Positions 7,326-53,770 of a stretch of DNA of 64,000 nucleotides are shown here, piece after piece (the stretch's first letter is position 1; the number at the start of each line of letters is the position of its first letter). The notes under the pieces were generated by a model that did no database searches, was not told the DNA's origin, and saw nothing but the letters and a program-made list of their open reading frames with translations. Where the stretch lies: contig OZ245365.1 in NCBI GenBank assembly GCA_965226495.1, positions 1,248,001 through 1,312,000 of the forward strand, given 5' to 3'. The translations under genes and the position numbers were made by a program. This DNA comes from Candidatus Marinacidobacterales bacterium. Its GTDB lineage: Bacteria > Acidobacteriota > Vicinamibacteria > Marinacidobacterales > DATDRI01.

Positions 7326-7634
7326 CGGCAGATGGGGAGTGAGTAAGGCCCTGGCTCCTGGCGGATTCTGTAGCGCTTGATCCCGCTTCCCATTTCATAC
7401 CAGTCAACGGTGGTGGCACCCACTTCCGCCGCATGTGCAGACCACTCACTGAATGGTCGAAAACCGTGTCTCTGGATATAAGTATTCTCATCTTAGATGT
7501 CTATTGGCTCGGGTCTTGAGAGGCATCCTGTTCTTTGGATCCTTCTTGCTAACGACGACGCCGCGGCCTCGAATGTTGCCTTGGCGAGGCTCTGCGCCCC
7601 GTTCAGGTTTCTGGCAATGATCCGCCCTATTCCG

Positions 7635-37568: not shown

Positions 37569-38063
37569 ATGCTGCTATCCGATACTCTGACCGCAGAGTT
37601 TGCCTTCGAGTCTGAAACGACGAAGAAGCTGATGGACCGGCTTCCCGAAGACAAGCTCTCTTGGACGCCCCACCAGAAGTCGATGACGCTCAGTCGGCTC
37701 GCGACCCACATTGCTCAGATCCCCGAATGGGGGGAGACCATCGTGCAGCACGAGAGCTTCGACATGGCCAGCGTCGATTACAAACCCCTCGAGCTCGGGA
37801 GTCGACAAGAGGTTTTAGATCTTCTCCAGAAGAACCTGGCGCAGTTTGCGGAGATCGTGAAGGGGAAGGACGACTCGTTGATGCTCGCGAAGTGGCAGCT
37901 CAAGCACGGCGACCATGTTGCCGTCGACGTACCGCGCATCGCGGCGCTTCGAGGTTTCGTTCTGAACCACACCATCCACCATCGCGGACAGCTATCGGTT
38001 TACCTCCGCCTGAACGACGTCCCCCTTCCTGCCATGTACGGGCCTTCCGCCGACGAATCCTAA
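37569..38063 (+). CDS. DinB/YfiT family protein
   Basis: WTPHQKSMTLSRLATHIA and NHTIHHRGQLSVYLR...P.MYGPSAD. Confidence 0.92.
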   Translation: MLLSDTLTAEFAFESETTKKLMDRLPEDKLSWTPHQKSMTLSRLATHIAQIPEWGETIVQHESFDMASVDYKPLELGSRQEVLDLLQKNLAQFAEIVKGKDDSLMLAKWQLKHGDHVAVDVPRIAALRGFVLNHTIHHRGQLSVYLRLNDVPLPAMYGPSADES

Positions 38064-39277
38064 TTCATGGGCGGTCCGACTGCGACAATAGGCTCGTTAG
38101 GCCGGAAATGCAGAGGGAACTTGGTCACCGGTCGCATGGGGTCCTTCAAGTCCACCAAGTAAGGAGCACGGTCCTTCTCTTTGACATCCCCGAGTTCGAA
38201 AACCACGGTGGAGGCGGCTAGGGCGGAGCCATCGGGTGAGGCCGCAATTCGCGTGCCATAAGGATGAGGCCAATCATCGAACTTCCCCGACATCCGCGCG
38301 ACCGTGGTAAGCCGTGGTGGGGCAGTGCCCATCGGTATTTCGGCGATAGAGAACATCATCCTGTCCCCTCGGAAGATCCAGAAGCCCGAAGATTTGGCGG
38401 GACTGAATACCGCCGCATAGAGGGTCTCGCCATCCGGCGACCAATCGAGATGTCCCAATACGTACTGTTCGACAGGGAGCTTCGGCACCAAGGTCTCTTG
38501 GAGTCCGGCCTCTGAGAAGATAAGGATGAGCGCCCCTGTCGGCCCGCCGCCGGCGACGGCCATTCGCTCCCCATTTCGATAGGGCGCCATGAAAGGGGAG
38601 AGCTCGTCGATCCCATGTTCCTCTAGTTCTCTCTTGGTCAGCTCGAAGAGTGGCAAGAGAGTGAGGTCCTCCAAATTCAGTTTTCCGAATTCTTCAGCCC
38701 GGAATACGCGTTTGCTCTTTGGATCGCTCGTCGGCTCGAATCGTGTTGCCCGGTAATAGACGGTGTCGCCAGCGTCGTAAAGCATGACGGTTTCCTCGGT
38801 TTCGCCGGACGTCACTTCGCCAGTGCGGAGATCGACTTTGTTCAGCGTTTCGCCGCCGAAGTAAAGGCTCCCTGCGATTTCCGGAATCGGTGATGCCGTT
38901 GCTATCGTAGCCGCGCCGCGCGGGAGCTCGATCCTCTCGCGCGGTTCAGGAGAGTTGAGAGGTAGTAGTAGTATCCCGCTCGTTGACAACACGATCACCC
39001 GCTCGCCGCCCGCCTCCCATTGTGCATCGATGACGCCCGCATCTTCGTCGGGTTCGGACACTAGAAAGATAGAACGCGTCGCTCCGCTGGCGCGATCCAA
39101 CAGCACGACACCAGACTCCTTCGCCGTCGGGTCGTAATAGGAGTAGAGCAGCTTAGAGCCGTCGGGACTCCACGAGGGTCGGGAGGGTAGGCAAGCGGAA
39201 ACGCACAGAATAAGTGCCAGAAGACTGACCACCGTGAATAATTCATTGCGATTTCCAATCTGATTGAGTCTTTCCAT
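38060..39277 (-). CDS. Lipoprotein with TolB-like beta-propeller
   Basis: AGGAGG RBS, lipobox VSAC, WSPDG twice and ASPDG. Confidence 0.75.
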   Translation of the reverse strand: MERLNQIGNRNELFTVVSLLALILCVSACLPSRPSWSPDGSKLLYSYYDPTAKESGVVLLDRASGATRSIFLVSEPDEDAGVIDAQWEAGGERVIVLSTSGILLLPLNSPEPRERIELPRGAATIATASPIPEIAGSLYFGGETLNKVDLRTGEVTSGETEETVMLYDAGDTVYYRATRFEPTSDPKSKRVFRAEEFGKLNLEDLTLLPLFELTKRELEEHGIDELSPFMAPYRNGERMAVAGGGPTGALILIFSEAGLQETLVPKLPVEQYVLGHLDWSPDGETLYAAVFSPAKSSGFWIFRGDRMMFSIAEIPMGTAPPRLTTVARMSGKFDDWPHPYGTRIAASPDGSALAASTVVFELGDVKEKDRAPYLVDLKDPMRPVTKFPLHFRPNEPIVAVGPPMN

Positions 39278-39307
39278 CTTCTTCGCCTCCTCTAGACGGG
39301 AAGAAGA

Positions 39308-39322
39308 GCAAGGACGGTGCCA
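39308..39322 (-). promoter_or_regulatory. sigma54 promoter P1 (drives 39277 lipoprotein)
   Basis: TGGCAC-CGTCC-TTGC on the minus strand, matching the -24/-12 consensus. Confidence 0.85.
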
Positions 39323-39376
39323 ACGCGCAGAGACTCATCGGTGGCAACATACCGTGGACAGAACGCCTCGTATCGC

Positions 39377-39408
39377 TTCGGATATCGAAACGGTGTTCGT
39401 GTATCGAA
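39377..39408. promoter_or_regulatory. Tandem upstream activator palindromes for P1
   Basis: TTCG gatat CGAA acggtg TTCG tgtat CGAA, 54 bp from P1. Confidence 0.8.
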
Positions 39409-39589
39409 ACACGCCCTAGCCTCACCAGCTCGCTAAGTCCTTGCTTCTAAACTGTCGATTCTGTTGAACTGTGTTTCCGCGACGGCATGAATCTGGCAGT
39501 TCACCAAGCAGGTTCCACCATGGCGTACGAGGCTTCACACCGCTTCACTCGGTGGTTTTCTGGCTGTAACATAGCTGCAGAGGTACCTC

Positions 39590-41167
39590 GTGGACGATTG
39601 GTCCCCTGAGACAACGCTCGATCCGAACAGCCCGCTGTCAGAGACTGGGACAGGACCGTCGCATCGACTTCTTGCTATCTACGAAGTAGGCCGATTGCTG
39701 TTGGAGCAGCGCGAGCCGCGCCAAATCATACTGACGATTCACAAAGCCCTCGTCGACCACCTCAAGCCCGATCATGCGTGCGTCCTGAGCGTCGGCGGGA
39801 ACGGCTCTCTGCACGCGGTGACGGCGCACGACCTGGATCTCGACAAACCCGAGGACGCCTGGCCTATCAGCCGGACCGCTTTGCGGCAAGCTCAAGAGAC
39901 GGGCCTCGCGCTTCTTGCGAAAGACGTTCTGCAAGATCCACAGTTCGGCGGCTCTCAGAGCGTCCACAAGTTCAGTATTGGGTCGGTCCTGTGTGTTCCG
40001 CTGGGAAAGGACCCGGTGCGCGGTCTGATTTATGCCGACCGCCGCAACAAGCGCGATGCGTTCACCCGGGAAGACCTCGAGTTTCTCACCGCCATCTCGG
40101 TCTACACCGGCCTAGTGCTGGAGCGCGCCGAGGAGTATCTCCGAACTTCGGAGGCGCTCAAACGTAGGGACGAACGGCTGGAGCTACTCGAAAGGGAGAT
40201 TCTCCGTTATGAGATCGTGGGAAAGTCGCCTCGCCTACTAGAGTCGTATGACCACTTGCGTCGATTAGCAGGGGCCGGCGCGCGGGTTCTGCTTAGGGGA
40301 GAAACAGGCACTGGCAAGGAGCTCTTCGCCCGTGCCTACGCCGCCGCCACCGAGCGAGGGAAGCCTTACGTGCCAGTTCCCATCCCGGCCCTTGCCCCTA
40401 ATCTCGTCGAGTCGGAGCTCTTCGGGCACGTAAAAGGGGCTTTCACTGAGGCCTCTCGCGACAAAAAAGGTTATCTCGAGGTCGCGCACGGCGGGGTCTT
40501 GTTTTTGGACGAGATCGGCGATATCGAACCGGCGACCCAGGTGAAACTGCTTCGCTTTCTGGACTCCGGGGAGCTTCACCGGGTCGGAGACACCGACCCA
40601 CGACACGTCGACACGCTCGTTGTCTCGGCTACGAATCGCAATTTGGAAAAGCTCGTAGAAGAAGGACGTTTTCGTTCCGATCTCCTGGCGCGCCTGGGAC
40701 ACCCGATCGAGATCCCACCTTTGCGCGAGCGCACCGGGGACATCCCGATTTTGGTGAACCACTTCAATGAAGTTTACTGCCGGGGACCGAAGCGGAAGAC
40801 CTTTGCGCCGGAGAGTATGGAGCTGATGAAGCGTTACCCCTGGGAGTTCAACGTACGCCAGCTTCAGCAGGTCGTGGAGCATGTGGTGTGTCTCGTCGAT
40901 CGCGAGACCATACTCCCCGAAGACTTGCCCGATTTCGTCCGCCTCGGCGCGGAACTGCCAGGGCCCACCTCGGGTGGGCTCGGGAGCGGAGATCGCGGCT
41001 CTCGGCCCTTGAAAGACGTCATCGACGAGGCGGAACGCGCGCATATCACACAGACCCTCGAGCTCACCGGCGGCAATAAACGCAAAGCGATCAAGCTCCT
41101 CGGCATATCCTCGGAAACCTTTTATAATAGGCTCGAGGAGTTCGGCCTTCACAAGAAAAAGTCCTAA
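39590..41167 (+). CDS. sigma54-dependent enhancer-binding protein, GAF-AAA+-Fis HTH
   Basis: GAF region (ISRT...SVLCVPL...GLIYAD...FTREDLEFL), GETGTGKE, ESELFGHVKGAFTEA, LFLDEIG, SATNRNL and C-terminal HTH GGNKRKAIKLLGIS. Confidence 0.93.
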   Translation: MDDWSPETTLDPNSPLSETGTGPSHRLLAIYEVGRLLLEQREPRQIILTIHKALVDHLKPDHACVLSVGGNGSLHAVTAHDLDLDKPEDAWPISRTALRQAQETGLALLAKDVLQDPQFGGSQSVHKFSIGSVLCVPLGKDPVRGLIYADRRNKRDAFTREDLEFLTAISVYTGLVLERAEEYLRTSEALKRRDERLELLEREILRYEIVGKSPRLLESYDHLRRLAGAGARVLLRGETGTGKELFARAYAAATERGKPYVPVPIPALAPNLVESELFGHVKGAFTEASRDKKGYLEVAHGGVLFLDEIGDIEPATQVKLLRFLDSGELHRVGDTDPRHVDTLVVSATNRNLEKLVEEGRFRSDLLARLGHPIEIPPLRERTGDIPILVNHFNEVYCRGPKRKTFAPESMELMKRYPWEFNVRQLQQVVEHVVCLVDRETILPEDLPDFVRLGAELPGPTSGGLGSGDRGSRPLKDVIDEAERAHITQTLELTGGNKRKAIKLLGISSETFYNRLEEFGLHKKKS

Positions 41168-42297
41168 CGCGGAACCGAGAGCCGCATCCGCGCGATGCCC
41201 CCAGCATGATCTGATGGCCATCGGCCCGATGACGTAAGATCCCTCACCTCCTCGCCCACCACGACTGCCTGGATGGGGCCGATTGGCGGACCATGTCCGT
41301 TGGCGGTGTTTCGGGCCCAAATCAGATCGATCCGCCGATTCAGTTGCGGCTCCGGATTGTCGAGTAGCTCGGCGTGACAACAGGTGTCGCCTGGCCTGGC
41401 CCGCCCTCTTTTCGCCGCCCATGCGTCGACGTAGCCCGCCCAGGCGAACTGCAGGTAAGGTGGCACGATGTCGTCGACAACCGGATCGTCTGGATCCGAG
41501 TTGAAGTCCCCGACGACGATCACTGGGTCGTCCGCTGCCGCCAGGATGCCGAGGAGTTCCTGCGCCTGTAGCGCCTGAAAAGCGAGGGCCGGTCCCTGAA
41601 AATCCACCTCCAAATGCGTGTTGACGAAGTGGTATTTCCGTCCACGAACCCACGCGTCGACCGACGTGAAACCCCGCAGGAACTCGAGCTCGGCTCCGGC
41701 TATGGAGACGGGAACGTTGAAAGTGTAGTTTTGCGACATGGCGTTCGCAGTCCCGACGTCTCCGCGAACGAGGATCACGTCCCGATCGGTCACTCGCCCA
41801 TCGAAGAACAGCGGAATCCCATTCGAATCGAATCCATCAAACCCAGGCAGCTCAACATCGACATTCTGAACGAGTGACGCGACGCGGTAATCCAAACCCC
41901 GACGGTCGAGAGCCGCGAGCAGGAGATCCAGATAGTCGAATTCAACATCCACCGCAGGGGTGGCGTTCAAATCACCCGGAAACTGCGTCCGGATCAAGAA
42001 GGCCTCCTGAAGTCCGATGAGCTCGGGCCTTTTTCTCGCGATCTCGTCCGCAATGGCCTCCATCCGCTCGGGTGGATTGCTCTGGCGTATGATTTTGAGG
42101 ATTTCGGCGACTTTAATAGAGAGATCGAACGGTGACTGCGCTTCCAGAACGCGGAAGACGTCGGCCCCAAAGTAGAGGTTGCGCGTCATCACTTTGACGC
42201 TTCCAGAACGGCGGTTCACGCCGTCGTGCCCCAGAACGAGCGGCGTCGTCAGAAGTACGAGAACAAAGGACATCCAGCGAGTCATTCTCCGTGTCAT
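41164..42297 (-). CDS. Secreted endonuclease/exonuclease/phosphatase (EEP) family hydrolase
   Basis: AAGGAG RBS, signal peptide, MTRNLY, GLQE, NTHLE, GDFNS, RIDLI and SDH. Confidence 0.9.
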   Translation of the reverse strand: MTRRMTRWMSFVLVLLTTPLVLGHDGVNRRSGSVKVMTRNLYFGADVFRVLEAQSPFDLSIKVAEILKIIRQSNPPERMEAIADEIARKRPELIGLQEAFLIRTQFPGDLNATPAVDVEFDYLDLLLAALDRRGLDYRVASLVQNVDVELPGFDGFDSNGIPLFFDGRVTDRDVILVRGDVGTANAMSQNYTFNVPVSIAGAELEFLRGFTSVDAWVRGRKYHFVNTHLEVDFQGPALAFQALQAQELLGILAAADDPVIVVGDFNSDPDDPVVDDIVPPYLQFAWAGYVDAWAAKRGRARPGDTCCHAELLDNPEPQLNRRIDLIWARNTANGHGPPIGPIQAVVVGEEVRDLTSSGRWPSDHAGGIARMRLSVPR

Positions 42298-42433
42298 TCG
42301 ATAGCTCCTTTCGCGCAGGTAGGGCATGGAGTCGAAGAATCCGTGACATCCACGGCTGTGGATTGGCAGCTGTCTCGACCCGCTAGGGGCATCCTTCGAC
42401 TCCATGCCTTTCTTTCCTGGCGTGCTAGGTACA

Positions 42434-42448
42434 GCAAATGCGATGCCA
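42434..42448 (-). promoter_or_regulatory. sigma54 promoter P2 (drives EEP hydrolase)
   Basis: TGGCAT-CGCAT-TTGC on the minus strand. Confidence 0.85.
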
Positions 42449-42502
42449 ACAGGGAGGCGTGAACCAGGCAGTGTTTATGCGCAGCTAGTGATACGGGAGT
42501 AG

Positions 42503-42533
42503 TTCAGATTTCGAACGCGTTTCGATTTACGGA
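42503..42533. promoter_or_regulatory. Tandem upstream activator palindromes for P2
   Basis: Minus strand TCCG taaat CGAA acgcg TTCG aaatc TGAA, 54 bp from P2. Confidence 0.72.
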
Positions 42534-42549
42534 GAGGTTCTACGCGGTC

Positions 42550-44697
42550 TCAAAAACGGAAGCGCAACTTTCCTACGATGAGCCTAGTGAGGATGTCGCC
42601 AAAGACGTGTTGTTGGATCTCTGAATTCATCAGATTGGTGATCTCTATGATGGTGCTCAGCTTCCCGTCCTCCCACCGGATTCCGAATCCGGCGTTGACG
42701 AGCGTGTAGGCGTCGCTAGGCCCGTGAAAGCGAGCGTCCAAGACGTCCTGCCAAAACGACCAAAACGCATCGTCGGCGAAGTTCACCGATACGTTGCCGA
42801 AGTATCGGCCATAGTTAAAGCTGAAGCCAGCGTTGAAACGGTGCGTCGGTGGCAGGTTGAGCTCGCTGAGATCGAATCCCGTCGGCTCCGGCTCGTCTTG
42901 CCACGAATAGTTCGCAAAAACGCCGAAGAATGGGTTGATGCTCGTATCAACGGAAAGCTCTATCCCCTTGTCCCGAACGCGCTCAAGATTCCGAAACGAG
43001 AGCTCGGCGGGAAGCCCCAAGCCGGCCCGGTCTAGCTCGTCCAAAACGCTCGGTGGCAGCGGCCAACCTGGGGGTGGGTTCGTGCTGTCGTAGGTGTCGG
43101 TTTGAGTGAATTGGATGATGTCGTCGATTTCGTTGATATAGAAGGCCGCGCTGACGATGGTGCGGCCCTCGATGACCCCGGTGTAACCGAGCTCATAAGA
43201 GGTAAGGGATTCCTCTCGTAGCGCTGCGTTTCCGACGGCGGCAACGGGAAAAACGAACGGATCCCCGGGGAGCGATGGGACGATCGATTCGAGGTCTACC
43301 GCGTCTAAGATGACCGTATCCAGAAAGTTGTTCACCAAGGATGGTGCGCGGAAGGCGCGGTTGAAGGAGATACGGAACGTTTGGTCCGGGTTGGGTTTCA
43401 CCATGAAACTGGTTCGTGGTGAAAAAACAACGTCTTCCAATACATCGAACTTATCGATACGTCCGCCCACCACCCAGCGAAAATGCTCGGAGAGGAAGAT
43501 CTCGTCTTGGATATAGAGCCCAACCTCGTCGCGGTTGTCCCTAACGGGTGCCAGGGAGATATCGAACCTGTTGTGACGCACGTTCCCCCCGTATGACAGC
43601 AAATGCTTGCCTCCGATTACATTCAAGTTTCCGAGCTCGATGTCGTAGGTCTGGTTCTTGAAAGTGAAATTGATGGGTTGGCCATCGGCGCCGATGGCAA
43701 GAAGCGCAGGTGCCTCGCTATCGGTGATGTTGGTGAAAAATCTCAGACTGAAATCGCCGCGCTGATACCGGACCGTTCCGTAGGCGAGAAAAGTCTCTGG
43801 CTTGATCGCGAAGGGACCGAGGCCGGAGTGAACGATTCCTCCGGTGCCCGCGTAGCCGCCCGCGAAGACGAACTTTTGCGGCCGGCTCAGATCTTGCCGA
43901 TCGCTAGGAAAGTCGTAATCGAAACGGACATCGAACTGGGGCTGCCTTGTCCCCTGGTTAGCGTACGGCGGATAGGGGGTTTGGAATTCGTTGGGAATCG
44001 TGCCGGTGGGGCGAGGGAGGGCGTGCTGGGCGTAGATCCCAGCCGAGATCTTGAATGCGAGCCGCTCGCTGACTGCCTGTCCATAGGTGCCATTCAAGGC
44101 GAACAGATTTCCGCTATCCTGCTCGTTCCCTTCGACAGAACGGTCGAACCCTCCGAAGTCGATCGCCAGGGTAGTACCCAACATTTCTCGAGGAGGCTTG
44201 GTGATGACGTTGACGACGCCAGTCATTGCGTTGGCTCCCCAAACTGCGGAAGCAGGCCCGCGGATGATTTCAATCTGTTTGATCTCGTCGGTGTTGATGG
44301 GAAGCAGGTCCCAGAAAACGAAACCAAAGAAATCCTGGTAGATGGTTCGTCCGTCGAGCAAGGCGAGCTGCGATGTGACGAGGGTCGAGGTCGAGGCGCG
44401 GCTCCTGAGATTGATGTCGCGAGCCGACATCTGAATCACGTTGAGGCCGGGGACGACGCGCAGGAGATCGCCGTAGTTTTGCGCCGGAGAGCTCTCAATG
44501 ACACGATAAGGCAAGACGCTCACGGTGGCGGGCGCATTGACGAGCTCCTCCTGAAGCTTGGAGACGCTCACCACGATCACTTCCTGGTAGGGGGGAAGGT
44601 CCTCCTTATCCTGTTCCTGGTCTTGTCCGTCCTCAGTGAGCGGAAAAGGAAGCGACAGGAAGGTGGCGAGCAGGGGGGTTACACACCAGACCAACAT
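42550..44697 (-). CDS. TonB-dependent receptor
   Basis: Signal peptide, TonB box EVIVVS, plug motif IEIIRGPASAVWGANAMTGVVNVITK, RAFRAPS and terminal F. Confidence 0.93.
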   Translation of the reverse strand: MLVWCVTPLLATFLSLPFPLTEDGQDQEQDKEDLPPYQEVIVVSVSKLQEELVNAPATVSVLPYRVIESSPAQNYGDLLRVVPGLNVIQMSARDINLRSRASTSTLVTSQLALLDGRTIYQDFFGFVFWDLLPINTDEIKQIEIIRGPASAVWGANAMTGVVNVITKPPREMLGTTLAIDFGGFDRSVEGNEQDSGNLFALNGTYGQAVSERLAFKISAGIYAQHALPRPTGTIPNEFQTPYPPYANQGTRQPQFDVRFDYDFPSDRQDLSRPQKFVFAGGYAGTGGIVHSGLGPFAIKPETFLAYGTVRYQRGDFSLRFFTNITDSEAPALLAIGADGQPINFTFKNQTYDIELGNLNVIGGKHLLSYGGNVRHNRFDISLAPVRDNRDEVGLYIQDEIFLSEHFRWVVGGRIDKFDVLEDVVFSPRTSFMVKPNPDQTFRISFNRAFRAPSLVNNFLDTVILDAVDLESIVPSLPGDPFVFPVAAVGNAALREESLTSYELGYTGVIEGRTIVSAAFYINEIDDIIQFTQTDTYDSTNPPPGWPLPPSVLDELDRAGLGLPAELSFRNLERVRDKGIELSVDTSINPFFGVFANYSWQDEPEPTGFDLSELNLPPTHRFNAGFSFNYGRYFGNVSVNFADDAFWSFWQDVLDARFHGPSDAYTLVNAGFGIRWEDGKLSTIIEITNLMNSEIQQHVFGDILTRLIVGKLRFRF

Positions 44698-44833
44698 AGG
44701 CAGTTTTCGTTGCTACGGAAGCTACTCGGTCCCGGCCTCGGAGTCAATCCGGTGAAAAGGGAGAGTTTCCCGTCTGATAAGACGGTCGCTGCGCAACGCA
44801 AGACGCCGCAGCAGACCGCGGGGAAGGCCGTTT

Positions 44834-44862
44834 TTGACACCACGAAACGTCCCTACTATTCT
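44834..44862 (+). promoter_or_regulatory. Putative sigma70 promoter of the kinase-TonB gene
   Basis: TTGACA-17 nt-TATTCT, about 60 bp upstream of ATG 44925. Confidence 0.65.
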
Positions 44863-44924
44863 CTAAGGTGGGCGGCACCTTGCACCCCAGTTAACATTCC
44901 AACCTCTGCCTTCTGGGAGATTTG

Positions 44925-46607
44925 ATGTCCGGCAATGAGGAGCTTGCACTCGGCGACATCCTCGATGGCAAGTACATCATCGAGGAGCTCATCGGTCGGG
45001 GAGGTATGGGCGCTGTTTATCGTGCCCGGCACGTGGAGCTCGGTTCGCCGCGAGCCATCAAGATCATGCGCCGAGAGCTCGCCCAAGACGCTTCCTTCGT
45101 CCGGCGCTTTCGGAACGAGCCGCTCCTTGCCGAGGGAGTGCGACACCCGAACGTCGTGTCGGTCTACGACTTTTCTACTCTTGACGACGGCACCTCCTAC
45201 ATCGTCTGGGAGTACGTCGAGGGAAACACACTAGCGCAGCTTCTCACCAAGGGAAACGTCTTCACCAGTTCCGAAGTAGTGAATTTCGTCGAACAGGTGG
45301 CCGACGGACTGTCGGCAGTGCACGAAAAGGGCATCCTTCATCGAGACGTGTCGCCGGACAACATCATGATCTGCACCGATGCTAGAGGTAGCAGCAACGT
45401 CAAGCTTCTCGACTTCGGAGTGGCCAAAGGCGGAGGGATCCCTGGAGAAACTCCAGCCGATGCCAGCATGTTATTTGGCAAGATCGGCTATGCCTCCCCG
45501 GAGCAGATGGGTCTTCTCCAAGACGACGAGCTCCTCGACGGTCGTACCGACGTCTTCTCACTTGCCGCCGTCGCATATACGATGCTCACGGGTGAATCGC
45601 CGTTTCGCACCGCGAGTTTGCAAGTCTTCGTCCACGATCTGATCATCGCTCCAGAGTCAGAGATCAAGGCCCGTTATCTCGAGAGTTTGCCCGAACCCTG
45701 GCGGGCGCCGCTCTCACGAGCCTTGGCCCGCGACCGTGAGGCGCGACCAGCGACCACCAACGCGTTCGCCGAGGAGATAAAGAAGGCGGCGAAGGCAATG
45801 GGCTCGGAGGGGAGTAGCATCCAGCAACCGGAAGCGGGAGCACCGCGATGGCGGGGTGTGCTCTTCGCGTCGGCCGTTGCCGCAGCCATAGTCGCGATTG
45901 CGGTCGCGGTGACGACGACGACGCGCGACGTGATCCGAACTCCTGTGAAGATCGGTGAGCCTTCCGCAAAGGGGCGACAGGCTTTTCCTGACGAGACTGT
46001 TGGTCTCGCGGAGCCAGCCATCGCCGAGTTGCCACAGAGGGAAGAGGTTGCGACCGAACTCGCTCCGGAGCCTTCGCGTTCGGTTGTCGCGCCGATCGAG
46101 ACAGAGCCCTCCCGGGAAAGAGAGGACGCGCAAGCCGGCCCGGTGCAAATCGCTGTACCAATGGAGGACGAGAGAAACCGGGTAGAAGAAGCTGGAGTGG
46201 ACTCCACTCCCGGCGAGCCGCCCGCCGCGGAGCCGAAGCATCCCAACCCGATCGATGACAAGATGGCCGAGGGCCCGAGCGAGCGTCCTCAACCCCCCGC
46301 TCCGGCACCGCCGGGGCCGCAACCGAAGACGGCGACAACCGTGATACAGCCACGGCTTGTATTCCAGAAGGAGCCGGTCTACACAGACATGGCGAAGAGG
46401 CTCAGAATCCAGGGCGACGTCATCTTGAAGGCCATGATCACTTCACAGGGGAACGTCACGGATATCGAGGTCGTCCGTTCCCTTCCTCACCTGGATGGGG
46501 CGGCGATCGAGGCGGCTCGCCAATGGAAGTACGAGCCCGCCCTGAGGGACGGCGTCGCCGTGCCGTACAAGATGGATCTGAAGGTAACGTTCCGCTTCAC
46601 GCCCTGA
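44925..46607 (+). CDS. Ser/Thr kinase - TM - Pro/Glu-rich linker - TonB C-terminal domain fusion
   Basis: IGRGGMGAVY, AIK, HRDVSPDN, DFG and YASPEQ. One TM (VLFASAVAAAIVAIAVAV), a Pro-rich linker, then EPVYTDMAKRLRIQGDVIL...G.V.DIEVV...AAIEAARQWKYEPA. Confidence 0.92.
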   Translation: MSGNEELALGDILDGKYIIEELIGRGGMGAVYRARHVELGSPRAIKIMRRELAQDASFVRRFRNEPLLAEGVRHPNVVSVYDFSTLDDGTSYIVWEYVEGNTLAQLLTKGNVFTSSEVVNFVEQVADGLSAVHEKGILHRDVSPDNIMICTDARGSSNVKLLDFGVAKGGGIPGETPADASMLFGKIGYASPEQMGLLQDDELLDGRTDVFSLAAVAYTMLTGESPFRTASLQVFVHDLIIAPESEIKARYLESLPEPWRAPLSRALARDREARPATTNAFAEEIKKAAKAMGSEGSSIQQPEAGAPRWRGVLFASAVAAAIVAIAVAVTTTTRDVIRTPVKIGEPSAKGRQAFPDETVGLAEPAIAELPQREEVATELAPEPSRSVVAPIETEPSREREDAQAGPVQIAVPMEDERNRVEEAGVDSTPGEPPAAEPKHPNPIDDKMAEGPSERPQPPAPAPPGPQPKTATTVIQPRLVFQKEPVYTDMAKRLRIQGDVILKAMITSQGNVTDIEVVRSLPHLDGAAIEAARQWKYEPALRDGVAVPYKMDLKVTFRFTP

Positions 46608-46628
46608 CATCCTCTTTACCAAGAATAC

Positions 46629-46659
46629 CTCGAGAATCGAAACCCGTTCGGAGTTCGAA
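46629..46659. promoter_or_regulatory. Tandem upstream activator palindromes for P3
   Basis: CTCG agaat CGAA acccg TTCG gagtt CGAA, 53 bp from P3. Confidence 0.8.
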
Positions 46660-46712
46660 ACGCATTTGTCCCACGAGCATTCCGAAGAGCCTTCTTTTTC
46701 GGCCTTTTCGAT

Positions 46713-46727
46713 TGGCATCGAACTTGC
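46713..46727 (+). promoter_or_regulatory. sigma54 promoter P3 (drives small membrane protein)
   Basis: TGGCAT-CGAAC-TTGC. Confidence 0.85.
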
Positions 46728-46742
46728 TCTTCGAGTCGATCC

Positions 46743-47015
46743 ATGAACGCACAGAACGTCTCCGTTGAAGTCACACGTCCCCGAGACCGACGTGGATTCT
46801 TGAACGCGAGGATGGTCCGAGGGCTTTCGTTCTTCACGGCGAGCATGTGCATTCTAGTTGCGGTGGTGGCGAGCCTTCTCGCCATATGGAAGTTCACAGG
46901 AACGGACGTGCTTTGGCGGACGGTAGCGACCTGCGCGGTGGTCGCGGGTGGCGCCATGACGTTTTCGTGGATTAATATTATCTTCGGGGATAATCCAACC
47001 GCCGATCCTTCCTAA
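46743..47015 (+). CDS. Small two-TM membrane protein of unknown function
   Basis: 90 aa with two hydrophobic segments separated by WKFTGTDVLWR. Lies directly after P3. Confidence 0.65.
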   Translation: MNAQNVSVEVTRPRDRRGFLNARMVRGLSFFTASMCILVAVVASLLAIWKFTGTDVLWRTVATCAVVAGGAMTFSWINIIFGDNPTADPS

Positions 47016-47022
47016 CTTAGGT

Positions 47023-47053
47023 TTCGAAAATCGGAAACCGTTCGGAACTCGAA
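47023..47053. promoter_or_regulatory. Tandem upstream activator palindromes for P4
   Basis: TTCG aaaat CGGA aaccg TTCG gaact CGAA, 54 bp from P4. Confidence 0.8.
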
Positions 47054-47107
47054 ACGCGTTTCTGTCCGCTAGATGGGCTAACCGCCCTCTTTCTCAGCTT
47101 TCTAGAG

Positions 47108-47122
47108 TGGCATCGAACTTGC
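47108..47122 (+). promoter_or_regulatory. sigma54 promoter P4 (drives TRAP-T operon)
   Basis: TGGCAT-CGAAC-TTGC, identical to P3. Confidence 0.85.
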
Positions 47123-47169
47123 TAACTCGAGTCGTAGCCGCCCGCACAAGGCTGCAAAGGAGGGTTCCA

Positions 47170-48222
47170 ATGGCTTACGTGTTTCATTGCCGATCACTCC
47201 GCATCCTTTTGGTCTCCCTAGTTCTCATGGTCGCTGCCACCGGCTGCTCCATGAAGAAGTACGCGATCAACAAGGTCGGTGACAGTCTCGCTTCCGGCGG
47301 CTCGGTTTACGAGAGCGACGACGACCTCGAGCTGGTTGGTGACGCGTTCCCGTTCTCACTCAAGCTGGTGGAGAGCCTGCTGGCGGAGTCGCCGCGTCAT
47401 CGGGGATTGCTGCTCGCCGCTTCCAAAGGGTTTACATCCTACTCCTACATCTTCGTGCATGGCGAAGCCGATGTCGTCGCCGTGGAGGATCTAGCCAGGG
47501 CCACGGAGCTTCGCGCGCGGGCCCGAAATCTTTATCTACGAGCTTATCGCTACGGAATTCGTGGCCTCGAGCTTTCCTACCCGGGTATCGGTTTCGCACT
47601 CACGTCGGATCCCGAACTGCCGCCGGAGCCCTTCGTCGCGCGCGCGATGCGGGACCTTGAGCTTTCGGAGCTAGAAATCGATCAACTCCCTATTTTCCTC
47701 GATCCCGAACAGGCGGTCTCTCGCATCACCGATAAGAAGAACGTGCCCCTGCTCTATTGGACGGGGGCGGCGCTGGGGTTGGCGATCTCTGTCTCCCGCA
47801 ACGATCCCGCGATGCTTGCGCGCTTGCCTGAGGTCGACGCCCTCGTCGGACAGGCGATGCGGCTAGACGAGAGTTGGGACGAGGGAGCGCTCCACGAGTT
47901 CGAAGTGATCTTCGCACGCGCTAGGCCCGGGGCGTTGGATTTCGAAGGGATGGACGTCCACTTCCGCCGCGCCCTCGAGCTATCGAACGGGGCGCGCGCG
48001 GGCCTTTTCGTTTCTTACGCGGAGGCCGTGGCCATACCCAACCAGGATCGCTCTCAGTTCGAGACGCTTCTCGAAAGCGCATTCGCTATCGATCCCGACA
48101 AGCACAAGGACAATCGCTTAGTAAACCTCGTCGCTCAGCGACGAGCGCGCTGGCTGCTATCAAGGGTCGACGATCTGATTCTTCCCGTCGAATCGATGGG
48201 GTCGGAAGGAGAGAGCCAATGA
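47170..48222 (+). CDS. tatT: TRAP transporter TatT component lipoprotein
   Basis: AAGGAGG RBS, lipobox ATGC, DDLELVGDAFPFSLKLVESLL, RARNLYLRA, VPLLYW and NLVAQRRARWLL. Adjacent to dctP and dctQM. Confidence 0.88.
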   Translation: MAYVFHCRSLRILLVSLVLMVAATGCSMKKYAINKVGDSLASGGSVYESDDDLELVGDAFPFSLKLVESLLAESPRHRGLLLAASKGFTSYSYIFVHGEADVVAVEDLARATELRARARNLYLRAYRYGIRGLELSYPGIGFALTSDPELPPEPFVARAMRDLELSELEIDQLPIFLDPEQAVSRITDKKNVPLLYWTGAALGLAISVSRNDPAMLARLPEVDALVGQAMRLDESWDEGALHEFEVIFARARPGALDFEGMDVHFRRALELSNGARAGLFVSYAEAVAIPNQDRSQFETLLESAFAIDPDKHKDNRLVNLVAQRRARWLLSRVDDLILPVESMGSEGESQ

Positions 48223-49283
48223 GGTACTCCATGTATGCGGTTCGAGCACTGGTTTGTCTAGTCCTACTTGGGTCGGCCCGGCCGGCTCTTTCCCAAAAAA
48301 TACGTATCAATTTGGGGACGGTGGCACCCGAGGGATCGATCTGGCACGAGATCCTTCTCGACGTGCGCCAGCAATGGGAGCAAATCTCCGGAGGCGAAGT
48401 CACGCTCCGTATCTATCCTAGCGGCATTCAGGGTGACGAAAGCGAGATGCTTCGAAAGGTTCGTATCGGCCAGCTCCACGCGGTCGCACTTTCTGGTGCG
48501 GGGCTTTCTCGCATCGACTCGAGTGTCTCTTGCCTTCAGGTCCCAATGCTCATCGAAACCTACGAAGAGCTCGACTACGTGGTCGAACGAGTGACGCCCA
48601 CGCTGGAAACGAAGCTTGCCGAGAAAGGCTTCGTCGTTTTGCATTGGGGCGACGTTGGGTGGGTGCACTTTTTCACCAAGAAGCCGGCGAGGACGCTCGA
48701 CGACATCCGTGAGATGAAGCTCTTCACCTCTGCCGGTGATCCGGAGACAGAGAAGCTCTACAAGGAGTTCGGCTTCCGACCGATTCCGCTCGCCCTGACC
48801 GATCTTCTCCCAGCGCTGCAAACCGGCATGATCGACGCAATAGACGTGCCTCCGCTGTTCGCGCTGCTCCAGCAGACGTTCGCTCTTGCGAGCCACATGA
48901 CGCCGGTGAAATGGGCTCCGCTGACCGCGGCGACCGTGATAAGCGAGAGGGCGTGGCAGGGAATACCGGCCGCGTGGCGTGAAGAGATGATCCTGGCTGC
49001 GCGCGCCGCCGCCGAGAAACGGCGCGACGAGATTCGGCGAATGGGTGAACGTGCCATCGACGAGATGCAAAGGAGGGGTTTGAAGGTCGTCGAGCTCGAT
49101 GAGGCGGCGCTCGTTTCCTGGCATCGGGAAGCCGAGCAGGCTTATCCCCGTCTCCGCGGAACGATGGTTCCGGAAGACCTCTTCGACCAAGTGACGCGCC
49201 TCAGCAGTGAGTTCAAAAAACGGCGGGGGACGGCCGATCAGGTCAACGGAGTGGAACGCGATCCGGCGCGTACGCGGCCATGA
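48219..49283 (+). CDS. dctP: TRAP substrate-binding protein DctP (TatP-type)
   Basis: LGTVAPEGSIW, GIQGDESEMLRKVRIGQL, WGDVGWVHFF and ALQTGMIDA. Confidence 0.92.
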   Translation: MRYSMYAVRALVCLVLLGSARPALSQKIRINLGTVAPEGSIWHEILLDVRQQWEQISGGEVTLRIYPSGIQGDESEMLRKVRIGQLHAVALSGAGLSRIDSSVSCLQVPMLIETYEELDYVVERVTPTLETKLAEKGFVVLHWGDVGWVHFFTKKPARTLDDIREMKLFTSAGDPETEKLYKEFGFRPIPLALTDLLPALQTGMIDAIDVPPLFALLQQTFALASHMTPVKWAPLTAATVISERAWQGIPAAWREEMILAARAAAEKRRDEIRRMGERAIDEMQRRGLKVVELDEAALVSWHREAEQAYPRLRGTMVPEDLFDQVTRLSSEFKKRRGTADQVNGVERDPARTRP

Positions 49284-51127
49284 GTGGTGTGCAAGCTACC
49301 GTAGTCCCTATCTGCGGGGAAACGACGTTACCGAAAGTACGCGCTTTCCGAATCGAAGACTCTCTATCGATCGGCGTACTGGCTCTGATGGTATTGATTC
49401 CCCTCATTGAGGTGGCGGGTCGTGAGCTCGCGGGGAGAGGTTTGCCGGGAGCCATCCCGATTGTCCAGCATCTGACGCTTTGGATTGCGTTTCTAGGAGC
49501 GGGGCTTGCGGCCCGCTCCGATCGGCTCCTCGCTCTTTCGACGGCGGACGTCCTCCCCCAACGCTGGCGCCGGCCGGTTCGGATCTTTACTTCGGCGGTC
49601 GGTGTCGCGGTGTCGGCGTCTCTTCTCTTGGCAAGCCTCGATCTCATTCGGGTCGAGCTGGCGGCGGGTGAGAGGGTAGCGTTCGGAGTACCGGTATGGT
49701 TCGCACTCGCCGTCATGCCCATCGGCTTCGCCTTGATCGCGGGCCGATTGATCTGGCACGCGTCCGATCGTGCATGGGGAAGAGTCCTGGTCGCGTCGGG
49801 GCTCTTGGTTCCCGCCGTCCTCGGGCAGTTTGCGGGTCTACAGGACGCGGGGCTGCTCGGTCCCGGAGTCTTGCTTCTACTCGTCGCGACGGCCCTGGGG
49901 CTTCCTATCTTTGCGGTTCTCGGAGGCGCGGCACTGCTCTTGTTTTGGACATCGGGAATTCCTGTGGCTGCGGTCCCGGTCGAGACCTATCGTTTGACCG
50001 CGCAGCCCATGTTGCCTGCGATTCCTCTATTTACGCTCGCGGGCTACTTACTCGCGGAGGGAGGTGCGAGTCGCCGGCTGCTTCGCAGTTTTACCGCCAT
50101 CGTCGGTTGGATGCCGGGAGGCCTCGCCATCGTGACCACTTTGGTTCTCGCATTCTTCACGCCTCTCACCGGTGCATCGGGGGTCACCATTCTTTCGATG
50201 GGAGGTCTCCTGCTGCCGATGCTAGTGAAGGCCCGGTATCCGGAGAAATCCTCGGTGGGTTTGGTTACGGTTTCTGGATCGATTGGTCTCCTCTTTGCAC
50301 CGAGTCTGCCCGTCATCCTATACGGCGTTTACTCGAATACGCCGATCGACGAGCTATTCATCGGTGGGTTGATGCCCGGGCTGTTGCTCGTGGTGCTGAT
50401 TGCTGGATGGGGTGCGAGCCGCGGCTTCCTTGCCGGGGCCCAACGGAGCTCCTTCGATAAACGCGAAGCTCTCGCGGCCCTGTGGGAGGCAAAGTGGGAG
50501 TTCCTTCTTCCTGTCGTCATCCTCGTGGGCATCTTCGGTGGGTTCGCTACGATTGTAGAAGCAGCCGCCCTTACCGTGCTCTACGCCTTCGTTGTGGAGT
50601 GCGTCGTCTACAAAGACATCCGGATCGGGCGCGATCTCGCTTCGATAGCCGTAGAGAGCGCTACCCTCGTTGGCGGGTTCCTCATCATTCTGGGTACGGC
50701 ACTCGGCTTCACCAACTATCTGATTCACGCCGAAGTACCGATCCGCGCGCTCCATTGGGTACAGACTTACATCGAATCACCGCTCGTCTTCTTGTTGACG
50801 CTCAACGTGTTTCTGCTCATCGTCGGAGCGCTGATGGACATCTATTCGGCGATCTTCGTTATTGTTCCGCTCATCGCTCCGATGGGGATCGCTTACGGCA
50901 TTCACCCGGTGCATCTCGGTATCGTCTTCCTCGCCAACATGGAGCTGGGCTACTTGATGCCGCCCATGGGAGAGAACCTGTTTCTTTCCTCTTATCGGTT
51001 CAAGCAGTCGCTCACTCGGGTCTATCTATCTACAGGCCCGTATGTTCTCATTTTGCTGGCGGCGGTCTTGCTGATTACTTATGTTCCCGCTTTCACCTTG
51101 TGGCCGCTCGAGCTGCTCGGACGGTGA
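49280..51127 (+). CDS. dctM: TRAP transporter fused DctQ-DctM permease
   Basis: N-terminal 4-TM DctQ part, then AIPLFTLAG, TGASGVTI, GSIGLLFAPSLP and ELGYLMPPMG.NLF. Confidence 0.92.
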   Translation: MSGVQATVVPICGETTLPKVRAFRIEDSLSIGVLALMVLIPLIEVAGRELAGRGLPGAIPIVQHLTLWIAFLGAGLAARSDRLLALSTADVLPQRWRRPVRIFTSAVGVAVSASLLLASLDLIRVELAAGERVAFGVPVWFALAVMPIGFALIAGRLIWHASDRAWGRVLVASGLLVPAVLGQFAGLQDAGLLGPGVLLLLVATALGLPIFAVLGGAALLLFWTSGIPVAAVPVETYRLTAQPMLPAIPLFTLAGYLLAEGGASRRLLRSFTAIVGWMPGGLAIVTTLVLAFFTPLTGASGVTILSMGGLLLPMLVKARYPEKSSVGLVTVSGSIGLLFAPSLPVILYGVYSNTPIDELFIGGLMPGLLLVVLIAGWGASRGFLAGAQRSSFDKREALAALWEAKWEFLLPVVILVGIFGGFATIVEAAALTVLYAFVVECVVYKDIRIGRDLASIAVESATLVGGFLIILGTALGFTNYLIHAEVPIRALHWVQTYIESPLVFLLTLNVFLLIVGALMDIYSAIFVIVPLIAPMGIAYGIHPVHLGIVFLANMELGYLMPPMGENLFLSSYRFKQSLTRVYLSTGPYVLILLAAVLLITYVPAFTLWPLELLGR

Positions 51128-51222
51128 GCGAGGTCTCTTGCCCGCCATACGCGCCGCCCGCATGCCGGTGGCGACGGCGCTTCGAGAGCTCTAGTCGCGC
51201 AAACGAAAGGGGCAGACCCCCC

Positions 51223-51735
51223 TCAGGGTCCGTTCCAAGGAGTCGTTCTCGGAATCCATCGCGGCACGTGCTGCTTGTAGCTCTCGTAGTCTTCACCGAA
51301 CCTTCGAACCAGACCAGGTTCTTCCGAAACGATGAAATAGACGTAATTAATGATGAAAAAGACGACCGCGAGCTCGGCGATGGCGAGAGAGCCCAGAAAA
51401 ACGGCTTCCCCGAGAAGAATCGTGATGACGCCGGTGATCATGGGGTTTCTTACGAATCGATAGGGTCCCTCGACTACGAGCTTCTGTGTCGGATCCCGGG
51501 GGGCCAACGTGCCCTCTCCGACGACCGCGAAAAGCCGCACCGTCTTCACAAGGAGCCACAACCCAGTTCCGATCAGCAGAACTCCCACTCCACGCGACGC
51601 GAAATAAATTGGTACCGAGAAGGGCCAGCGAGTATCGATCTCGTCCAGGAATACGACGATGAGACTCGGCACCACCACGAGGACCATGAAAGGCAGAGCC
51701 AGGACGGAGGCAAGAACTCGCAGATGGGGGACCAA
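51223..51735 (-). CDS. Isoprenylcysteine carboxylmethyltransferase/PEMT family membrane protein
   Basis: GEGTLAP, LVVEGPYRFVRNPM and EEPGL..RFGEDY..Y...VPRWIP. Confidence 0.88.
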   Translation of the reverse strand: MVPHLRVLASVLALPFMVLVVVPSLIVVFLDEIDTRWPFSVPIYFASRGVGVLLIGTGLWLLVKTVRLFAVVGEGTLAPRDPTQKLVVEGPYRFVRNPMITGVITILLGEAVFLGSLAIAELAVVFFIINYVYFIVSEEPGLVRRFGEDYESYKQHVPRWIPRTTPWNGP

Positions 51736-51736
51736 T

Positions 51737-53560
51737 CTATGTCGTGGGCTTCTGGTTGTACCAGAACACCAAAATGAACTCGAAGACGTCGTCCGGGTAG
51801 TCGTCCGGTAAAGCAGCGAGAGCCGCCTGACGAAGAGCCCGCGCCGCCGCTTCGTCTAGTGTCGAGTTATTGGAGCCCTTCTTGACTCGAACCTCAAGGA
51901 TCTGTCCGCGGCGGTTGATCGAAGCTTCGACCGAGGCGTGGCCTACAGTGTGCGTATCCGAACCGGGAACCTTCCACCGCCGTTGCACTTCTGTGACCAT
52001 TTGGTGGACCCAGGGTTGGAGGTCGGCCCCCTTAGCATCGTAGTAGATGCTGTTGGACAGACGAACCGCTGGCCCGTAGGCGTTGAGATCTGTAAGGAAC
52101 GCCTTCGCCATCTGGCGTTCCGCGGCCGCCGTCGCGACGGTCACGACGCGCTCACCGATTTCCCGCGCTTCGTCCACGCGGTTCAATCGCAACAAGAGCT
52201 CACCAGTGTTGACTAAATAGATCACGTTCTGCGGTTCGAGCTCCACCGATCGTTGAGCGATACCGATAGCCTCTTCCAAATTTTCCCCTCGACGCACGTA
52301 CTCGTACGCGAGCTGGCCGTACCCCGGTCCAAATAAGGGATTGATGTCGATGGCCCGCTTCAAGGAGCTTTCGGCTCTTGCCCACGCGTCCGTATCTTCT
52401 ACGTTCTCCGTTGCGAGTACAGCGTAGTAGTAATGAGAAATATAGCTCCCGGTACCCAACGCCACTGCGTCCTCGAACCAGCGTTTGGCGAGCTCCCGTT
52501 TGTCGCGCCGGAACTCCAAATAACCCATGCTCTCATGCGCCAGGGCATTTTTCGGATCCAGCCGCAGGGCCTCTTCCAGAAGGGCTTGGGCTTCATACGG
52601 GCGGTTGCTGGCCACCAAGAAGCTTCCCCGCACCGCAGCAGAATCCGCTGGTGAAAGCTCTCTCGCGGAGTATGCCTTGTCGTCGATCTCTGCCGGGGCA
52701 TCCATTCGAGGGCCCCGCCCCATCTTGCTCGAGCTCACGTAACCCTCGAGTTTTTCTTGGAGCTCGTCGAGATCGCCGAAGGATCGTCTAGCCGCCTCGA
52801 CCGAATCCACGTCTGCCTGCACCAGTCGTAGGTACGCGGACAAGGCGGGCCTGGTCCTCGCGTTCTCGTCGCCGAGCAAGAGATAGTGGATGAGTGCCCC
52901 TGATTGCGCGTAGAAGATGGAGACCCTATCGGGATCGGTGTCGTGTGGGTTCTCCTTCATCCCGATGAGCTCCTCGAGCGGCAGCATTCTGTTGCGTTCG
53001 AAGATCTTTCGGCCGATGGGGATGCCCATATCGACGGTCTTGCCCTGAATCCGCGTGCGTTCCCAGACCTCGGCCAATCCTTCGTTCATCCACATCGGGA
53101 TTTTCTCCTCGTTCAAACTCGCGAGGAGATGAAAGTATTCGTGGTAGATCAGTCGGTAGCGTTCGTTGGCTCGTCCATCCAACCGAAGCACGACGAAGTG
53201 TTTATCGAAGCCTCTTTGGAAGACTCCAGCCGGCCGCTGGCCTTTCCGTTCCCAGTATTGGGGAAGGAGTTCTTTCAGTCCATCCTGGTCTTTGGTGGCA
53301 AGGACAACGATGGGGGAACCATCGTCCCTGGCTTTGGGAAGGGCAGTCAGGAAGACGGCACGAATCCGCTCGAGGTCGCCCGCGGTGCGGCGAGCCATTT
53401 TTTCGCCGGCGTTGCTGACAACGGTGAAGTGAGGGCTACGGACCTCGATCCAGGTATCTTGTTTGTCGGCTGCCCCGCCCGAGGGGTCGGGGACCGACAG
53501 TTCCAGCGTTACGGTCGCGAGGAGTGAGAAAAATAGCGCTCTCGCGGGGGTGGCTATCAT
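51737..53560 (-). CDS. Exported zincin-like (DUF1570-like, HEYFH) + TPR + TonB/TolA C-terminal domain protein
   Basis: WIEVRSPHF, IYHEYFH, WMNEGLAE, FYAQS.ALIHYL and TPRs. C-terminus VQRRWKVP...INRRGQI...GSNNSTLDEAAARAL. Confidence 0.8.
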   Translation of the reverse strand: MIATPARALFFSLLATVTLELSVPDPSGGAADKQDTWIEVRSPHFTVVSNAGEKMARRTAGDLERIRAVFLTALPKARDDGSPIVVLATKDQDGLKELLPQYWERKGQRPAGVFQRGFDKHFVVLRLDGRANERYRLIYHEYFHLLASLNEEKIPMWMNEGLAEVWERTRIQGKTVDMGIPIGRKIFERNRMLPLEELIGMKENPHDTDPDRVSIFYAQSGALIHYLLLGDENARTRPALSAYLRLVQADVDSVEAARRSFGDLDELQEKLEGYVSSSKMGRGPRMDAPAEIDDKAYSARELSPADSAAVRGSFLVASNRPYEAQALLEEALRLDPKNALAHESMGYLEFRRDKRELAKRWFEDAVALGTGSYISHYYYAVLATENVEDTDAWARAESSLKRAIDINPLFGPGYGQLAYEYVRRGENLEEAIGIAQRSVELEPQNVIYLVNTGELLLRLNRVDEAREIGERVVTVATAAAERQMAKAFLTDLNAYGPAVRLSNSIYYDAKGADLQPWVHQMVTEVQRRWKVPGSDTHTVGHASVEASINRRGQILEVRVKKGSNNSTLDEAAARALRQAALAALPDDYPDDVFEFILVFWYNQKPTT

Positions 53561-53770
53561 GAGATTAATGCTCCTACCCGCTTTCCCCTGGGGGAGGGGA
53601 GAATAAGACCGTCTTTATACCCCTCCGCCCTCTCGGTTGTCAAGAAGCCGGGCCCGTCAAGTGATAGAGGGTGTCGATGTGAGATGCTGCCTAGTTCAGC
53701 TGACAGGTCCTTCGCAGAAACCGTGGCGATCGCTTTGACGAACTCTGCCCCGCCCGGGTAGTCTAGTATC

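Follow-up and report, generated by a model that had tools for sequence, protein, structure and literature searches.

The window analysed here is a 64,000-nt stretch of the single-contig genome (6,337,479 bp, 59% GC) of a Candidatus Marinacidobacterales bacterium (contig OZ245365.1, positions 1,248,001 to 1,312,000; window coordinates count from its first letter). It contains a 13 kb module (38058-51122) in which the gene of a putative sigma-54 enhancer-binding protein lies among four predicted transcription units, each preceded by a −24/−12 promoter box and, further upstream, by a tandem pair of TTCG-N5-CGAA palindromes that may serve as an upstream activating sequence (UAS). The in silico evidence supports well that this four-promoter module is a self-contained local sigma-54 regulon.

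Promoter boxes, tandem palindromes and genes of the module

A search of both strands with the strict pattern TGGCAY-N5-TTGC returned five boxes in the window, whereas 100 shuffles of the 64,000 nt gave 0.11 ± 0.31 and never reached five. Four of them lie at 39322(-), 42448(-), 46713(+) and 47108(+), exactly where the initial annotation had placed them, and a fifth at 38258(-) had been missed. The boxes (all identified by pattern match) and the tandem palindromes, for which no strand is assigned, are as follows:

39308-39322, minus strand: P1, −24/−12 box TGGCACCGTCCTTGC, with GAGGAGG and then the ATG at 39277 downstream
42434-42448, minus strand: P2, −24/−12 box TGGCATCGCATTTGC
46713-46727, plus strand: P3, −24/−12 box TGGCATCGAACTTGC
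47108-47122, plus strand: P4, −24/−12 box TGGCATCGAACTTGC, the same letters as P3
38244-38258, minus strand: fifth strict sigma-54-like box, within the 3' end of the lipoprotein open reading frame (ORF)
39377-39408: UAS1, 0 mismatches, spacer 6, 54 bp from P1, 38.8 bits, between the divergent lipoprotein and activator genes
42503-42533: UAS2, 2 mismatches, spacer 5, 54 bp from P2, 31.6 bits, just past the stop of a receptor gene
46629-46659: UAS3, 1 mismatch, spacer 5, 53 bp from P3, 32.9 bits
47023-47053: UAS4, 1 mismatch, spacer 5, 54 bp from P4, 38.9 bits

P1 to P4 have the properties by which sigma-54 promoters are recognised, with GG and GC 10 nt apart within TGGCAY-N5-TTGCW and a gene a short distance downstream: all four extend to TTGCT, the box ends lie 15-47 nt upstream of ORF starts, and a purine-rich ribosome-binding stretch is found between box and ORF start at three of the four. 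The ATG of the 90-aa ORF follows the P3 box by 15 nt, so that the predicted leader is very short. The genome encodes rpoN (Sigma54_DBD, 216 bits), and 5 of the 46 strict boxes in its 6.34 Mb are found in the 9 kb of this locus.

The composite site was written as TTCG-N5-CGAA-N(5/6)-TTCG-N5-CGAA, with mismatches counted over both palindromes. It had been claimed that two TTCG-N5-CGAA palindromes precede each of the four boxes; the pair is indeed present at all four, but it is exact only at P1, and the others carry one or two mismatches. At least two dyad-symmetric sites thus lie inside the approximately 150 bp upstream of each promoter, as is usual for a UAS. The distances given before for P1 to P4 (54, 54, 53 and 54 bp), counted between the T of TGGCA and the proximal palindrome, were measured to be the same. 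The window has eight exact single palindromes, against an expected 2.99 and with one shuffle in 100 attaining eight, and four of the eight are inside the claimed sites. Bases outside the pattern are also biased: of 76 symmetrised half-sites, 45 have a G before TTCG and 65 have a purine after it. The unit is therefore nearer to GTTCG-R-N3-Y-CGAAC. A full-text literature search returned no paper with TTCG-N5-CGAA; the supplementary tables of PMC4641369, PMC6615313 and PMC12316311 were outside that search and might hold similar motifs.

Thirteen ORFs of the locus were scanned with Pfam and NCBIfam, and these scans, together with reading of the sequences, agree with the genes that had been called before: the activator, the lipoprotein, the hydrolase, the small membrane protein and the TRAP transporter operon. 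The activator and the putative targets are:

39590-41167, plus strand: enhancer-binding protein with an N-terminal ExTLDPxxPL tail, GAF, AAA+ and Fis-type helix-turn-helix (HTH) domains (Pfam/NCBIfam and motif reading)
38060-39277, minus strand: target 1, lipoprotein of 405 aa with a weak PD40 beta-propeller repeat (24 bits), an N-terminal signal peptide and a VSAC lipobox
41164-42405, minus strand: target 2, predicted secreted endonuclease/exonuclease/phosphatase-family (EEP) protein (Exo_endo_phos, 51.9 bits) with a signal-peptide-like stretch
46743-47015, plus strand: target 3, 90-aa protein with two hydrophobic stretches (sequence read by eye); homologues with 62-68% identity in the related loci L102, L103 and L106
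47170-51127, plus strand: target 4, operon for a TRAP transporter of the TPR-protein-associated type (TPAT; Pfam), comprising the following three genes
47170-48222, plus strand: TatT (TAtT, 251 bits; Treponema pallidum Tp0956 at 1.2e-30)
48219-49283, plus strand: DctP (155.8 bits)
49280-51127, plus strand: fused DctQM (DctM 242.2, DctQ 63.5 bits)

The activator has the Pfam domains GAF, Sigma54_activat, AAA_lid_14 and HTH_8. Its AAA+ sigma-54 interaction domain (PF00158) scores 180.6 bits against a cut-off of 20.2, with Walker A (GETGTGKE) at residue 237 and Walker B (DEIG) at residue 307, and HTH_8 (36.4 bits) covers residues 479-518 with a helix that is conserved among the orthologues. The best sequence matches among solved structures are NtrC-family, ZraR and NifA activators. 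It is not NifA, since the NifA equivalog TIGR01817 reaches 271.2 bits, below its cut-off of 528.85, and every other named equivalog is below cut-off as well. In front of the GAF domain lies an ExT(L/I)DPxxP(L/I) tail with an invariant threonine (residues 1-20; 39590-39660, plus strand), and the full peptide is present in 11 of 12 readable orthologues.

In the operon behind P4, the TatT and DctP genes and the DctP and DctQM genes overlap by 4 bp at each junction, and the presence of TatT in one operon with DctP and DctQ/M is what defines a TPAT. TatT homologues bind long-chain fatty acids (PMC11713862), and TPATs have been proposed to carry aliphatic ligands (PMC5812351), according to the available parts of these papers. 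The target genes suggest that an external compound is taken up and processed, and because of these ligands a role of the module in lipid or fatty-acid scavenging is a reasonable guess by analogy. For the function of the EEP protein, the search of solved structures by sequence gave nothing usable, and its matches in the Atlas were generic EEP clusters only, with a sphingomyelin phosphodiesterase cluster at rank 30. No Pfam family matched the 90-aa protein.

Rarity of the site and its co-occurrence with the activator gene

The whole genome has four composite sites with at most one mismatch and spacers of 4-7. Three of these are at the locus, and the remaining one, at 1582923, has its closest strict box at a distance of 11 kb. 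We also built a position matrix from the eight palindromes of the window, for which the scores of the four window sites (31.6-38.9 bits) are circular and the rest of the genome is the test. The next best site in the genome scores 21.4 bits and the maximum in the reversed genome is 20.1, so that this whole-genome matrix scan found no further regulon member, that is, no tandem site above 21.4 bits beyond the locus. The argument of the initial annotation that chance is a very unlikely explanation is borne out by these counts and by the shuffles, and the finding it had named as speaking against its reading, a motif equally common far from sigma-54 boxes, did not emerge from the genome scan.

The site is also co-inherited with the activator gene. 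Orthologues of the activator were sought in 401 sampled genomes of one bacterial class and were found, with 56-72% identity, in 29 of them (by family label, 11/19 in f2, 16/59 in f5 and 1/1 in f8); the seven further genomes from the family to which the window belongs, among them the unpublished G007, gave no orthologue. For site searches we used 14 long loci with 275,660 bases, namely 20-kb stretches around 13 orthologues and the Acidobacteriota metagenome-assembled genome locus L001, and as controls 79 loci around non-orthologous activators with 1,266,900 bases. At a threshold of 18 bits or more, the window-trained matrix gave 10 tandem matches in 7 of the 14 orthologous loci versus two matches (maximum 19.9 bits) in the 79 controls. 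In five whole genomes of relatives (approximately 36 Mb), a search with at most one mismatch and spacers of 5 and 6 returned exactly three sites, all beside the orthologue, two at a distance of about 200 bp or less and one about 600 bp away, with 0 and 2 matches in the reversed-pattern controls. When two mismatches and spacers of 5-7 were allowed, a site was present within 1.5 kb of the activator gene in 17 of 31 orthologous loci (132,618 bases), compared with three matches in the 1.27 Mb of controls and 24 in the organism's own 6.34 Mb genome, locus included; L001 and L124 share an identical site and may be one genome, in which case the count would be 16/30.

The genes behind site and box vary among these lineages. 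They include the EEP gene (L102, with the orthologue behind a strict box and a weaker site 52 bp upstream), TatT together with a truncated lipoprotein homologue (L105), DctP (L106), a conserved lipoprotein of about 160 aa (six loci) and the activator gene itself, which is preceded by strict boxes in L104 and in L103, in the latter case at 233 bp. As the genes behind the site differ, the activator gene is its only constant neighbour.

Spacing, proposed mechanism and alternatives

The distance between site and promoter is quantised across the loci. At 17 loci, the best GG-N10-GC box within 130 bp of the site was chosen regardless of its distance, and the resulting gaps were 41, 43 and 44 bp; 52, 53 and four times 54 bp; 63, five times 64 and 65 bp; and 75 bp at a weak site. 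For these classes (41-44, 52-54, 63-65 and 75 bp) the best-fitting period is 10.7 bp, about one helical turn, at R = 0.90, which none of 20,000 random draws matched. Such quantised gaps fit an activation from one face of the helix. A dependence on the face of the helix is established for short-range enhancers, as with NifA. For Desulfovibrio vulgaris, promoters at a distance of up to 100 nt from the closest activator site make up the largest fraction of the sigma-54 promoters, as stated in the available part of the study (PMC4641369).

In view of the rarity of the site in the genome, its co-occurrence with the orthologues, the conservation of its flanking bases and the phased gaps, we consider it likely that the tandem palindromes are bound by two dimers of the local activator, or by three where a third palindrome exists, and that the activator then forms an ATPase ring and activates the sigma-54 holoenzyme at the four promoters. 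The earlier proposal that the local activator binds the motif and drives the four units thus gains support at the sequence level. The dimers would occupy two adjacent palindromes of 13-15 bp that have a centre-to-centre distance of 18-20 bp and follow the consensus (G)TTCG-R-N3-Y-CGAA(C). From its position at about −81 to −112, the bound activator would assemble its ATPase ring and loop to the holoenzyme at the TGGCAY-N5-TTGCT promoter, located on the same helix face, and the lipoprotein, the secreted EEP phosphoesterase, the small membrane protein and the TatT-DctP-DctQM transporter would be switched on. The signal is presumably sensed by the GAF domain, whose ligand could be cytoplasmic, or by the conserved N-terminal tail.

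Several observations weigh against this proposal. Among the runs recorded as RNA, none was found to contain the DNA of 38000-47900. The relatives share ancestry, and the statistics for phasing and enrichment are therefore overstated and the true significance is lower. A strict box in L103 lies 233 bp from the site and off the phasing series. The site at P2, with its two mismatches, belongs to a level at which 5-9 sites per spacer form a genome-wide background. By eye, no IHF-like site, bend or consistent T-tracts were seen between enhancer and promoter in the window. In 14 of the 31 orthologous loci there is no site within 1.5 kb at up to two mismatches, and some of these loci are short contigs or contain an activator gene that appears split or frameshifted. 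Finally, the loop that contacts sigma-54 (40418-40435, plus strand) reads GAFTEA, not GAFTGA, and this is also the case in all 13 orthologues that are readable at this position.

These observations also bear on alternatives, of which the best surviving one is that the boxes are true sigma-54 promoters while the palindromes are bound by some other protein, either another activator or a repressor, and the local activator acts elsewhere. The genome offers candidates, as it has about 20 strong Sigma54_activat matches, and the site-less orthologous loci would fit this reading. Nevertheless, we regard this as improbable, because in five whole genomes the only sites fall within about 600 bp of the orthologue of this very activator, the 79 loci around other activators contain essentially no sites, and the 13 ORFs scanned in the locus encode no further DNA-binding domain.

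It is even less probable that the activator, with its GAFTEA loop, has ceased to engage sigma-54 and regulates by other means. HupR-like proteins regulate without engaging sigma-54, and the substitution is present throughout the readable members of the clade. In the available text of one survey, GAFTGA is called invariant and is used as a filter (PMC12316311), and surveys that filter for the exact GAFTGA would miss this clade. Against a loss of sigma-54 contact stands the fact that the family always adjoins good −24/−12 boxes, and two other activators of the same genome carry GAYTDA and GAFTDA. Moreover, D. vulgaris activators with GAFTDA, GAYTDA and GAFSEA are said to retain transcription activation, and two of these three have assigned regulons (PMC4641369, available part). 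As variants with an acidic fifth residue are already contained in that study, we dropped the idea that GAFTEA is a novelty; a full-text literature search for GAFTEA gave no relevant paper.

The idea that a promoter cassette was duplicated to give all four units of enhancer and promoter, whose geometry would result from copying and not from functional constraint, is suggested by the identical 15-nt boxes and similar enhancers of P3 and P4 at a distance of 395 bp. It is highly unlikely, since the P3 and P4 units are alike only in the enhancer, the box and a few bases past the box, the 53-54 bp spacers of the four units share no evident sequence and agree in length alone, and distant relatives show these length classes again although their spacers are unrelated in sequence.

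The activation by the local enhancer-binding protein that we propose has well-known parallels. NifA recognises TGT-N10-ACA as UAS at nif promoters, and NtrC binds tandem sites at glnAp2; these activators consist of a GAF or receiver domain, an AAA+ domain and a Fis-type HTH, their dyads lie at about −100 to −150, and they act by looping with a face-of-helix requirement. The combination of a sensor domain with AAA+ and Fis-type HTH domains and the dyad sites are shared with the system described here, which differs in the sequence of the motif and has no nitrogen genes among its targets. The one-component regulons of D. vulgaris (PMC4641369, available part) resemble it in that the activator gene adjoins its targets, that a palindromic site is kept upstream of sigma-54 promoters, and that GAFTGA is found in variants whose fifth residue is acidic. 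Unlike those regulons, the present one belongs to another phylum, uses the tandem TTCG-N5-CGAA motif, serves another cargo, and has four promoters in one 13 kb module. The system confirms textbook enhancer logic and changes nothing in it; it is a known sort of gene switch and in this respect fairly ordinary. Its value lies in the fact that a so far unstudied clade of sigma-54 activators can now be assigned a DNA motif, along with a set of targets and a rule for the spacing. The clade is most likely in Acidobacteriota, a phylum for which no published regulon of this kind was found among the matches listed in a literature search.

The operon behind P4 corresponds to the TPATs of Treponema pallidum (Tp0956/Tp0957) and of Enhygromyxa salina TatT, which also combine TatT, DctP and a fused DctQM in one operon (PMC5812351, PMC11713862, available parts). 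In contrast to these, a sigma-54 promoter and a putative enhancer precede the operon in the window. The available parts of the two papers contain nothing on TPAT regulation, and our assignment would for the first time offer access to the regulation of a TatT-type TRAP transporter.

Receptor and kinase genes, module boundaries and minor observations

Two further genes of the module lie between the EEP gene and P3:

42550-44697, minus strand: TonB-dependent outer-membrane receptor with Plug and barrel domains (Pfam/NCBIfam)
44922-46607, plus strand: Hanks-type Ser/Thr kinase (Pkinase, 148 bits, residues 19-283) fused to a C-terminal TonB_C domain (73 bits, residues 484-558)

No sigma-54 box of their own was found for these genes. 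A sigma-70-like TTGACA-N17-TATTCT stands ahead of the kinase gene (44834-44862, plus strand), as a consensus match only, with 3 such matches in the region versus 3.4 expected. Fusions of a kinase with TonB_C appear to number four in the genome (that of the window and those at G000:C1 near 681-683, 3730-3733 and 6052-6054 kb), as judged from shared open frames, and of these only the one in the window adjoins a TonB-dependent receptor; ten receptors with a Plug domain are present in the genome. A literature search found no paper that pairs TonB_C with Pkinase.

The arrangement raises the idea that the activator is the output of a relay across the envelope, from the receptor via the TonB-domain kinase to the activator and its regulon. 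A ligand-loaded receptor would expose its TonB box, the periplasmic TonB_C domain of the adjacent kinase would sense it, and the cytoplasmic kinase domain would phosphorylate the activator, perhaps at the threonine of the ExTLDPxxPL tail, which is invariant and might accept a phosphate from the neighbouring kinase. The activator would then turn on the enhancer-dependent regulon, including the TatT-type, possibly fatty-acid, importer and the secreted phosphoesterase. The window shares the synteny of the genes for receptor, kinase and activator with L102, L103 and L104, though the L102 kinase gave no TonB_C match. Nine of the 14 long loci have a Ser/Thr kinase gene no more than about 5 kb away from the activator, and the genome has about 100 kinase genes, or approximately one per 60 kb. 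On this evidence we consider the relay speculative and rather unlikely.

The closest known arrangement is FecA-FecR-FecI, in which the gene of a TonB-dependent receptor neighbours those of a signalling protein that spans the membrane and of a dedicated transcription activator. If the relay exists, the likeness would consist in the outer-membrane receptor gene standing beside the genes of a membrane signalling protein and an activator. Different from the FecA system, Pfam detected no N-terminal signalling domain on the receptor of the window and no extracytoplasmic function (ECF)/sigma-70-family or anti-sigma domain in the 13 ORFs; here the relaying part would fall to a Hanks kinase whose TonB_C domain is periplasmic, and the output would be a sigma-54 activator. 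Were the relay true, the window would supply its readable output, namely the enhancer motif and the four promoters. Four promoters with one motif are, in any case, ready reporters with which to ask whether the neighbouring TonB-domain kinase and outer-membrane receptor make up a novel signalling path.

Within the genus, the module is an insertion/deletion difference, as it is missing from both same-genus genomes that were examined (G001 and G002). In G002, the flanks have a nucleotide identity of 82-90%, with the match reaching to 38057 and resuming at 51123, and the slot is filled by a four-gene MacAB-like efflux set, HlyD-ABC-FtsX-FtsX. In G001, the region of approximately 38628-53856 is missing, and the last 570 bp or so of the lipoprotein gene are kept with 96% identity (flanks about 88-89%), the fifth box included. 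An island signature was not seen in 1-kb GC bins over 30-58 kb, all of which range from 0.545 to 0.629 around the genome value of 0.59 with no step at the edges of the module. Just beyond the module lies the gene of a TPR-repeat protein whose C-terminus carries a TonB domain (51737-53560, minus strand); it is conserved with 84% identity in G002.

No tandem palindrome site lies within 130 bp of the fifth box (38244-38258), and any transcript from it would read antisense through DinB-family and amidohydrolase genes. Intragenic sigma-54 binding is said to be widespread in E. coli, going by the title of a study (PMC4591121). Directly after the kinase gene, between UAS3 and P3, there is a terminator-like hairpin with a T-run (46682-46702, plus strand; consensus match only), which would shield P3 from read-through. 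For an autoregulation of the activator in the window, the sole candidate box, CGGCATGAATCTGGC at 39483(+), is poor, with two mismatches and a distance of 74 bp from UAS1, and was rejected.

A third palindrome in register, with room for three dimers, is seen in L127 (3029-3078), L129 (980-1029) and L132 (1435-1484). In L105 (genome G022), the lipoprotein homologue is cut to 67 aa (7937-8140, minus strand) and adjoins a Mutator-family transposase gene (6592-7887, minus strand), and its strict box shares one enhancer with a divergent TatT promoter, with gaps of 42 and 43 bp. Outside the window, strict boxes at G000:C1:5466500 (minus strand) and 5467944 (minus strand) each have an ACGTAA-N5-TTACGT dyad with flanks about 50 bp upstream, and these boxes probably belong to another local regulon under a different activator.

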